DNA from: a virus
Lineage: Duplodnaviria > Heunggongvirae > Uroviricota > Caudoviricetes
DNA length: 5,025 nucleotides
Direction: 5' to 3' (one strand)
Virus record (IMG/VR): IMGVR_UViG_2681813313_000011
Shown here: positions 382 through 408 of the stretch, in pieces
How the letters are laid out: every line of letters begins with the position of its first letter
Numbering within the stretch: position 1 is the stretch's first letter
Program-made: the position numbers and the translations under genes
The notes under the pieces: model-generated
Databases searched by the model: none
What the model saw: only the letters and a program-made list of their open reading frames with translations
Told to the model about the DNA's origin: nothing

Positions 382-408
382 AAAAAAAAGGCCGCGCCAT
401 GCGCAGCC
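382..408 (-). terminator. Rho-independent terminator between the small membrane ORF and the esterase gene
   Basis: Minus-strand RNA GGCUGCGC-AUG-GCGCGGCC forms an 8-bp GC-rich stem (one G-U pair) with a 3-nt loop, followed directly by 8 U (forward A-run 382-389). Confidence 0.6.

Follow-up and report, generated by a model that had tools for sequence, protein, structure and literature searches.

Organization of the locus

The window analysed here is a stretch of 5,025 nucleotides from IMG/VR virus record IMGVR_UViG_2681813313_000011 (Caudoviricetes). All window genes lie on the minus strand and are described below from high to low coordinates. At the upstream side is hok/sok (4717-4393); a DUF968 gene and then rusA occupy the interval between hok/sok and the antiterminator gene. 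The antiterminator Q gene (1838..2533) is intact and encodes a 231-aa protein (PF06323, 310 bits; RefSeq annotation). Just downstream of Q is a candidate PR' promoter (TTGCAA-17-TATATT; 1854-1826), followed by a candidate tR' terminator at about 1774-1746 with an A-tract, a weak hairpin and a U8 (fold -17.6 kcal/mol, z = -2.3), both assigned at consensus level only. Phage 434, which has a Q82-like Q of equal length, carries an annotated terminator at the place equivalent to the candidate tR'.

Three tRNA genes (CAU, Arg-UCG and Arg-UCU; 1376..1625) follow, the CAU tRNA being called Met by ARAGORN and Ile (ileZ) in RefSeq. Ten nucleotides upstream of the first of these is a promoter-like TTGCAA-17-TATTAT (1635..1663; a consensus match only), which is the tRNA promoter invoked by an earlier note on this DNA, made from the letters alone. 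Next is a tciA/TerB-family cargo gene (774..1235; PF05099 on its C-terminal part) that is a pseudogene, inactivated by a single in-frame stop (1070-1068; 'internal stop' in the RefSeq remark), and then tciB (610..777), which encodes a 55-aa DUF3927 small membrane protein (PF13064, 60.4 bits). The last gene is a nanS-p-type esterase with a DUF1737 N-terminus (1..295; ATG 295-293, ribosome binding site GGGAG at 307-303) that continues beyond the window; the annotated counterparts in the matching records are full-length SASA family esterases. In E. coli O157 strain 493/89 a 99.9% identical stretch continues into holin, lysozyme and lysis-protein genes. The order of Q, PR'-like and tR'-like sites and downstream lysis genes, all on one strand, is the layout of a Q-antiterminated late operon.

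The terminator hairpin with which this report is concerned is located between tciB and the esterase gene. The gene calls thus agree with the earlier note, which had put it between a small membrane ORF (tciB) and a nanS-p-like gene; the note's further suggestion of a possibly expressed cargo is not supported for the main cargo gene, which is a pseudogene. The spacer between the terminator and the esterase gene is 86 nt, and a consensus scan revealed no sigma-70-like promoter between the hairpin and the esterase ATG. RefSeq has only a doubtful 'hypothetical protein' in the stretch upstream of the hairpin that is assigned below to a small RNA, and the curated record of phage 434 already annotates the same hairpin as a terminator. 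Homology of 98.5-99% to phages 434 and 2B8 starts exactly at the hairpin, which is thus also a mosaic joint.

The terminator hairpin at 408..382

The hairpin and its U8 tail occupy 408..382 of the minus strand, exactly the coordinates given earlier. The stem-loop (390..408, minus strand) is GGCUGCGC-AUG-GCGCGGCC, as supported by its fold and pair probabilities, with a 5' arm from G408 to C401 (GGCUGCGC), a 3-nt loop (AUG; 400-398) and a 3' arm from G397 to C390 (GCGCGGCC). The U8 (382..389, minus strand) marks where termination occurs and is presumed to contact Hfq as a 3' poly(U), and a U-rich stretch, UUUAUUUU (410..417, minus strand), lies directly 5' of the hairpin. Seven of the 8 bp are G-C and one is a wobble pair (U405.G393); the earlier description as an 8-bp GC stem with a U8 is borne out, 'GC stem' being very nearly right.

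The hairpin has an energy of -15.4 kcal/mol in context. It accounts for 0.90 of the ensemble in a 48-nt context (z = -2.3), and every one of its pairs has a probability of at least 0.985 within the 195-nt RNA described below. It is by far the best among nine terminator-like sites of the window and the sole one in 250-700. When the whole window was shuffled 1000 times with its dinucleotides preserved, a site of equal quality (at least 8 pairs, at least 7 of them G-C, and at least 7 U in 8) arose on either strand only once. Bidirectional termination was also considered, and the plus strand has neither a U-tract after the hairpin (GAAAAUAAAGGG) nor a fold signal (z = -0.14), which makes the hairpin unidirectional; its direction on the minus strand is that of Q, the tRNAs, tciB and the esterase gene. 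With a G+C-rich stem-loop followed by a U-tract on the transcribed strand, 408..382 is a genuine and strong intrinsic (Rho-independent) terminator.

Two weaker candidate terminators, after the tRNAs (1378-1318) and after tciB (650-590), do not fold convincingly and were set aside. No strong terminator is present between the tRNAs and the hairpin, and the hairpin is the only strong one between tR' and the esterase gene. Weak Rfam matches over the hairpin to asX2 (plus strand; 25 bits against a threshold of 70) and suhB (16.7 against 41) were likewise rejected as sub-threshold.

Conservation was followed in IMG/VR from an anchor of 19 nt downstream of the hairpin, the hairpin itself being excluded. 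It is present, identical or with its pairing preserved, at all 121 anchored sites (121/121). The 5' arm is invariant among these except for one record with an N, and the 3' arm varies at three positions, each change keeping a standard pair. As a covariation test this gives 100% pairing with three one-sided and no double changes, and shuffles score equally; the stem varies too little to lend covariation support. A 5' motif of the small RNA discussed below is found at a fixed distance at 118 of the 121 sites, with predicted lengths of 171-174 nt (53 sites, PasD type) or 194-209 nt (65 sites, the window type). An esterase start is located downstream at 85 of the 110 scorable IMG/VR sites and does not follow at the other 25. 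A further 21 anchor matches in genome contigs (archaea, Bacteroidales and others) are at the level expected by chance for 596 Gb and were discarded.

The arrangement of a ~170-nt structured RNA, a terminator, an 86-nt spacer and a gene, together with the tight linkage to the esterase leader at 85 of 110 sites, is what would be seen if the RNA were a cis-acting riboswitch or attenuator leader for the esterase, with the hairpin as a conditional attenuator. This is very improbable. The 230 nt upstream contain no complement of at least 6 nt to either arm, the pair probabilities leave the hairpin formed, esterase genes are absent after 25 of the 110 sites as well as after the PasD1 and Sakai Sp3 relatives introduced below, and the homologues act in trans on Hfq. 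As no upstream segment is able to compete with the stem, the terminator looks constitutive rather than conditional.

A small RNA of the STnc100/PasD/EcOnc04 family

The hairpin is the end of a regulatory RNA gene. Searches with cmscan place a structured small RNA (sRNA) body, Rfam RF02076 (STnc100), at 433..605 on the minus strand with 100.8 bits (E = 7e-23); the gathering score is 47 and the match covers model positions 1-206, the full model length. The consensus terminator of RF02076 itself is unmatched (aligned to gaps), and the PasD-type hairpin is situated 25 nt further on. Membership of the STnc100 family is indicated by a score above the gathering score and by a 3' stem-loop with poly(U) at the RNA end, and the location is also the expected one, in a lambdoid prophage downstream of Q and a moron and upstream of an esterase or holin gene. 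Both published STnc_100 qPCR primers (PMC12370729) are present in the window sequence, and the EcOnc06 probe matches 500-534.

The ends of the RNA can be placed by homology. Window positions 625-365 align end to end with the PasD1 and PasD2 loci of EPEC E2348/69, which were mapped at 1060260-1060432 and 741157-741328 of NC_011601.1, respectively (Pearl Mizrahi et al., PMC8550237). The mapped 5' end of PasD2, the G of GCAUGG, corresponds to window G576, and its 3' end at 741328 (PMC8550237, Table S6) is by alignment the last U of the same U8, at window 382. The sizes of both PasD RNAs were confirmed by Northern blot, both were recovered on Hfq by RIL-seq, and their RIL-seq fragments end at the U tail (PMC8550237). 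These correspondences predict an sRNA of 195 nt (382..576, minus strand). The true 5' end may lie as far upstream as about 609, giving about 222-228 nt; a start near 605-609 coincides with the start of the Rfam model and is downstream of CATAAT (621-616).

The closest known relative is EcOnc04 in prophage Sp11 of O157:H7 Sakai, where an Hfq-CRAC peak and a ~222-nt Northern band were reported (Tree et al. 2014, PMC4104026). The Sp11 copy is 96.8% identical over window 640-360 (281 nt including the sRNA and the hairpin), and its locus has the same order as the window: tRNAs, tciA, tciB, the RNA and the esterase gene. The EcOnc04 Northern probe is antisense to the minus-strand RNA and aligns to 435-470 with two mismatches; no match arose in 200 shuffles. 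The shared gene order, the Sp11 identity and the probe match identify the window copy, on sequence grounds, as an orthologue of EcOnc04, a variant of the STnc100/PasD family. EcOnc13, suspected at first, was rejected as the orthologue; it is a PasD1-type copy in Sp3, and the true orthologue is EcOnc04. An assignment to PasD proper was likewise dismissed, since the seed UGUGAG, which in PasD lies just 5' of the terminator and pairs with CUCACA in targets, is absent, with CUCAAACUAUCAUCGUUAUCCCUUUAUUUUC in its place, and the predicted length is 195 rather than 172-173 nt. At ~222 nt, the EcOnc04 band exceeds the 195-nt length that homology to the PasD2 5' end predicts. The sRNA is already known, its variant having been detected in 2014, and is nothing new in kind.

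The region at 409..470 (minus strand) is specific to this variant and is a candidate seed. Its sequence is unlike the PasD seed CCUUGUGAGUUCU and includes the EcOnc04 probe target. The 3' end has the layout of an Hfq module, with UUUAUUUU (417-410), the hairpin and the U8, matching the description of such modules in sRNAs as a terminator hairpin flanked by a U-rich stretch and a long tail of U residues (Otaka 2011 and Ishikawa 2012, as cited in PMC4104026). By this analysis the window copy would bind Hfq. The minimum free energy fold of the whole 195-nt RNA (z = -0.73) is no better than those of shuffles and reproduces only some internal hairpins of the Rfam consensus, and the terminator hairpin at its 3' end is of the PasD type. 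Convergent sRNAs of the AsxR/AgvB type (RF02702, RF02703) on the opposite strand gave no match at E <= 1.

An alignment of the window with Sakai Sp11, Sp4, Sp5 (stx2) and Sp3 and with phage JLK-2012 shows the family to consist of a conserved 5' body, a variable pre-terminator stretch and one of two unrelated terminators. The first of these (Type A), that of the window, is also found in Sp11, Sp3/EcOnc13, PasD1 and PasD2, phage 434 and JLK-2012; the second (Type B), which is the Rfam consensus, is in Sp4/EcOnc05 and Sp5/EcOnc27. That a terminator is kept at the same place although its sequence has been replaced argues for its function. Among 5426 complete E. coli genomes, 646 have the window-type 3' end, with 1912 copies and a median of three per genome, such that the sRNA gene occurs in about 12% of these genomes, usually in several copies.

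Expression, promoter and role of the terminator

Expression at the homologous EPEC locus was taken from published DESeq2 baseMean values under the activating condition (PMC8550237). The upstream genes E2348C_0686 and E2348C_0687 (159 nt; taken as the tciB-like ORF) have values of 226 and 37, pasD2 (172 nt) has 11017, and the downstream esterase gene E2348C_0688 (1851 nt) and holin gene E2348C_0689 have 102 and 3.5, the holin being almost silent. Per nucleotide, the read density of pasD2 exceeds that of the esterase ~1160-fold and that of the upstream ORF ~280-fold, ratios that mix termination and RNA stability. These data and the mapped ends belong to homologues, the PasD2 RNA being about 68% and the Sp11 copy 97% identical to that of the window. 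RNA-seq levels of pasD1 and pasD2 do not change significantly without Hfq, and the text on the Northern blots describes Hfq-dependent stability (PMC8550237).

The earlier note had read the hairpin as a barrier between cargo and lysis genes. Transcript levels on the two sides of the EPEC homologue are indeed far from equal, with a ~1000-fold drop in density, and the 3' end of the EPEC RNA at the last U of the U8 bears out a terminator where the variable 'moron' slot meets the esterase and lysis genes. This part of the interpretation stands. What does not stand is the identity of the RNA, as the note took the terminated transcripts to come from the tRNA promoter or from any local promoter and missed the sRNA; the RNA that ends at the hairpin is chiefly a dedicated and abundant sRNA, associated with Hfq, from the EcOnc04/PasD/STnc100 family. 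The primary identity of the hairpin is the 3' end of this known prophage sRNA.

The hairpin is quite unlikely to be purely an insulator that stops tRNA, cargo or stray transcription, with an upstream RNA that has no function of its own. Its position between the moron slot and the late genes, downstream of the promoter-like site of the tRNAs, the lack of any other strong terminator from tR' to the esterase gene, and the large expression drop in EPEC all fit such a role. Against this, the RNA that ends at the hairpin scores well above the threshold of an Rfam family, the homologues are abundant, discrete, Hfq-recovered RNAs with many partners in trans, and the U-rich stretch, hairpin and U8 are the typical layout of an sRNA 3' end. 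The EPEC upstream ORFs also lie far below the sRNA, leaving little upstream transcription to insulate against; given the ~280-fold lower density of the upstream ORF, upstream transcription is minor and the RNA stopped is mainly the sRNA.

The same difference in density makes it probable that a separate promoter, located just downstream of tciB, serves the sRNA. A sigma-70 consensus scan of the minus strand flagged no site for the sRNA or for the esterase gene, and the sRNA promoter is thus only inferred. A weak putative promoter is located at 584..613 (minus strand), with a -35 of TTGATT (613-608), an 18-nt spacer and a -10 of TAAAAA (589-584) situated 7 nt from G576; with the CATAAT at 621-616 as the alternative -10, the RNA would begin near 609. 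Six divergent relatives, whose upstream genes differ, all have the block TTTnTTAAAA unchanged just before the mapped 5' end.

PasD2 has been classed as possibly 3' UTR-derived from its upstream gene (PMC8550237), and the sRNA could be a 3'-terminal product of RNase E cleavage of a tRNA-tciA-tciB (or tciB) transcript for which the hairpin is the operon terminator. The bracketing of PasD2 with the upstream gene, a notation for UTR-derived RNAs (PMC8550237), accords with such processing, as do the lack of a consensus promoter upstream of the sRNA and of any strong terminator from the tRNAs to the hairpin. This origin is nonetheless unlikely, as pasD2 is ~280-fold denser than the upstream ORF, TTTnTTAAAA is invariant though the upstream genes differ (stx2B in Sp5, a tRNA in Sp4), and members of this RNA family also follow unrelated genes.

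The hairpin and U8 are thus most probably the Rho-independent terminator and 3' Hfq-binding module of an EcOnc04-variant sRNA, doubling as a Q-transparent barrier. An sRNA of ~195-225 nt, extending from roughly 576-609 down to 382, would be transcribed from its own promoter downstream of tciB, with RNA polymerase halting in the U8. The stem, the preceding U-rich stretch and the U tail would protect the 3' end and bind Hfq, and the variable stretch immediately preceding the hairpin would let the sRNA act in trans. Situated in the late operon, with the moron slot before it and the esterase, lysis and structural genes after it, the hairpin would also stop polymerase not modified by Q, no matter whether transcription began at the promoter of the sRNA, at that of the tRNAs or in the cargo, such that the late genes beyond it would be nearly silent in lysogens. 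Once the prophage is induced, Q-loaded polymerase coming from PR' would ignore the hairpin as it does tR'. A second function as an insulator, which is a textbook notion for late operons of lambdoid phages, is plausible, and we infer it for the hairpin from its position.

Read-through by Q-modified polymerase is expected from the intact Q, the PR'-like and tR'-like sites, the downstream lysis genes and the absence of a promoter between the hairpin and the esterase gene in the consensus scan. It is also consistent with the rise of nanS-p by 1-2.4 logs on mitomycin C treatment in Stx2a phages (PMC10462455) and with the general scheme of Q-dependent late transcription (PMC12078605). In a system that differs from Q, the conAn processive antitermination of B. 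subtilis plasmid pLS20, resistance was shown by a terminator with an extraordinarily long stem (PMC10325885); the stem in the window, with an ordinary 8 bp, is not of this resistant class, which also counts for read-through.

The esterase gene, which seems to have no promoter of its own and would lie behind a very active sRNA promoter, could owe its basal expression to read-through of about 0.1% at the hairpin. Such a leak valve setting the basal nanS-p level is a tentative and rather doubtful idea. Were it true, uninduced lysogens could use 9-O-acetylated sialic acids, and natural stem variants, which include U.G versus U-A, G-C versus G.U and a 1-nt deletion in Sp11 (isolated-hairpin energies from -10.7 to -14.7 kcal/mol), would tune this level. 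Q read-through on induction would then embed the sRNA in the late mRNA and alter the pool of free sRNA.

These assignments correct the map of the locus, in that an apparent bare intergenic terminator is the end of a regulatory RNA gene, and they show lambdoid prophages placing sRNA genes within the late operon. The sRNA terminator would serve a second time as a barrier to the lysis genes in the lysogen, one transparent to Q after induction. The family has some medical relevance through its stx2-linked copy, which overlaps sequence features predicting haemolytic uraemic syndrome (PMC12711010), and through the pairing of PasD with virulence mRNAs in EPEC.

Comparison with known systems

The Sp11 locus differs from the window in two respects: its stem is 7 bp rather than 8 bp, one C being absent from the 3' arm, and its tciA is intact whereas that of the window is a pseudogene. 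Zhu, Shabalina and Storz (bioRxiv 10.64898/2026.05.13.724894) concluded that PasD and STnc100 have a common origin, and they placed PasD2 directly ahead of a gene for a sialate esterase. The window RNA has the 5' end motif GCAUGGUGAAUCC and the overall body in common with PasD1 and PasD2. It is about 68% identical overall to PasD2, with a nearly identical hairpin in which PasD2 has a G-to-A change in the 3' arm that converts U.G to U-A; the hairpins of PasD1 and of EcOnc13 (Sakai Sp3) are identical to that of the window. The Northern probe used for PasD extends over the 5' arm of the stem. Relative to PasD (172-173 nt), the window RNA has ~23 extra nt before the hairpin and a different sequence at the seed position, and its body is closer to STnc100 proper in Sakai Sp4 (89%) than to PasD (68%).

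STnc100/EcOnc27, located downstream of stx2B in Stx2 phages, has the same structured body as the window RNA and occupies the same slot, at the moron end and upstream of nanS-p. The Rfam consensus and the Sp4 and Sp5 copies have the other terminator, GGCCYCUC...GAGGGGCC-U5, followed by a convergent sRNA of the AsxR/AgvB type, whereas the window has the PasD-type terminator and lacks the convergent terminators of Sp4 and Sp5. The family is expressed in EHEC, where EDL933 has 11 STnc100 copies, one of which was confirmed by Northern blot as a discrete RNA (PMC5331693).

The hairpin also resembles lambdoid tR' and the terminator downstream of stx1B in H-19B, in that all are intrinsic terminators inside a Q-antiterminated operon. 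Such late-operon terminators, which are read through with Q, stop unmodified polymerase in the lysogen, and tR' releases a short RNA, which is the 6S RNA in lambda and StxS in Stx phages. The two positions differ in the transcripts that they end: tR' acts on PR' transcripts, whereas the window terminator is situated ~1.4 kb further downstream and would mainly end transcripts from a separate promoter.

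A mosaic joint at the sRNA terminator

The terminator of the predicted sRNA (an EcOnc04 variant of the STnc100/PasD family) coincides with a mosaic joint at window 382–411 (minus strand), identified by identity to phages 434 and 2B8. Identity of 98.5–99% with these phages begins exactly at the hairpin and runs on into the nanS-p-type esterase gene; the sRNA body 5′ of the joint is only ~68% identical to them. The terminator moves with the esterase module and not with the sRNA body. Relatives of the sRNA in two prophages of E. coli O157:H7 Sakai, Sp4 (locus L007, ~2400–2470) and the stx2 prophage Sp5 (locus L009, ~3080–3140), have a different terminator, GGCCYCUC...GAGGGGCC-U5, which lies tail to tail with that of a convergently oriented AsxR/AgvB-type sRNA, and thus two non-homologous terminator cassettes occupy the same position within one RNA family. 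The esterase leader has a further hairpin at window 321–341 (minus strand), 40 nt 3′ of the main terminator; it is weak, is followed by a short stretch of U (CCGCUUCCGG-CUUUUU), and may be a back-up stop or without meaning.

Doubtful open reading frames are drawn over the sRNA and terminator in public records (window 324–509, and 5286–5429 and 2876–3064 in the fetched records L001 and L002 respectively). In RefSeq the frame runs on the opposite strand and is labelled as a pseudo 'hypothetical protein', the phage 434 record has a 'putative membrane protein' overlapping its own annotated terminator, and an sRNA annotation is absent from all of these records.

Cargo genes, tRNA and the hok/sok locus

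The TerB-family gene tciA (window 774–1235, minus strand) is a pseudogene with one in-frame stop at 1070–1068, whereas Sakai Sp11 and phage JLK-2012 carry it intact; the prophage 'cargo' is therefore cut down to tciB and the sRNA. The CAU-anticodon tRNA at 1550–1625 (minus strand) is called Met by ARAGORN and tRNA-Ile (ileZ) in the RefSeq and Sakai annotations, the latter label implying lysidine modification.

Profile and Rfam matches place a hok/sok type I toxin-antitoxin locus, named hokD in RefSeq, at 4393–4717 (minus strand), including a Hok/Gef open reading frame (4605–4396; PF01848, 79.9 bits) and an Rfam match to sok (4717–4543; 110 bits, gathering score 59). An isrK-like Rfam hit at 4303–4384 (minus strand) is weak, its 27 bits falling short of the gathering score of 50; at its 3′ end it has a good terminator-like site (4324–4307, AACCCGCUUCGGCGGGUU followed by a U-rich tail), situated immediately 3′ of hok.

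Candidate promoters and known RNAs

Within 1746–1854 (minus strand), a PR′-like promoter is followed ~50–80 nt on by an A-tract, a weak hairpin whose stem has only ~4 G-C pairs lengthened by A-U pairs, and U8; in the lysogen this arrangement would give rise to a short transcript analogous to lambda 6S RNA or StxS. For the sRNA itself, a candidate CATAAT at 616–621 (minus strand), inside the 3′ end of tciB, would start the RNA near 609 and give ~228 nt up to the U8. The EcOnc04 Northern band of ~222 nt is nearer to this length than to the 195 nt counted from the mapped 5′ end of PasD2, the EPEC E2348/69 homologue.
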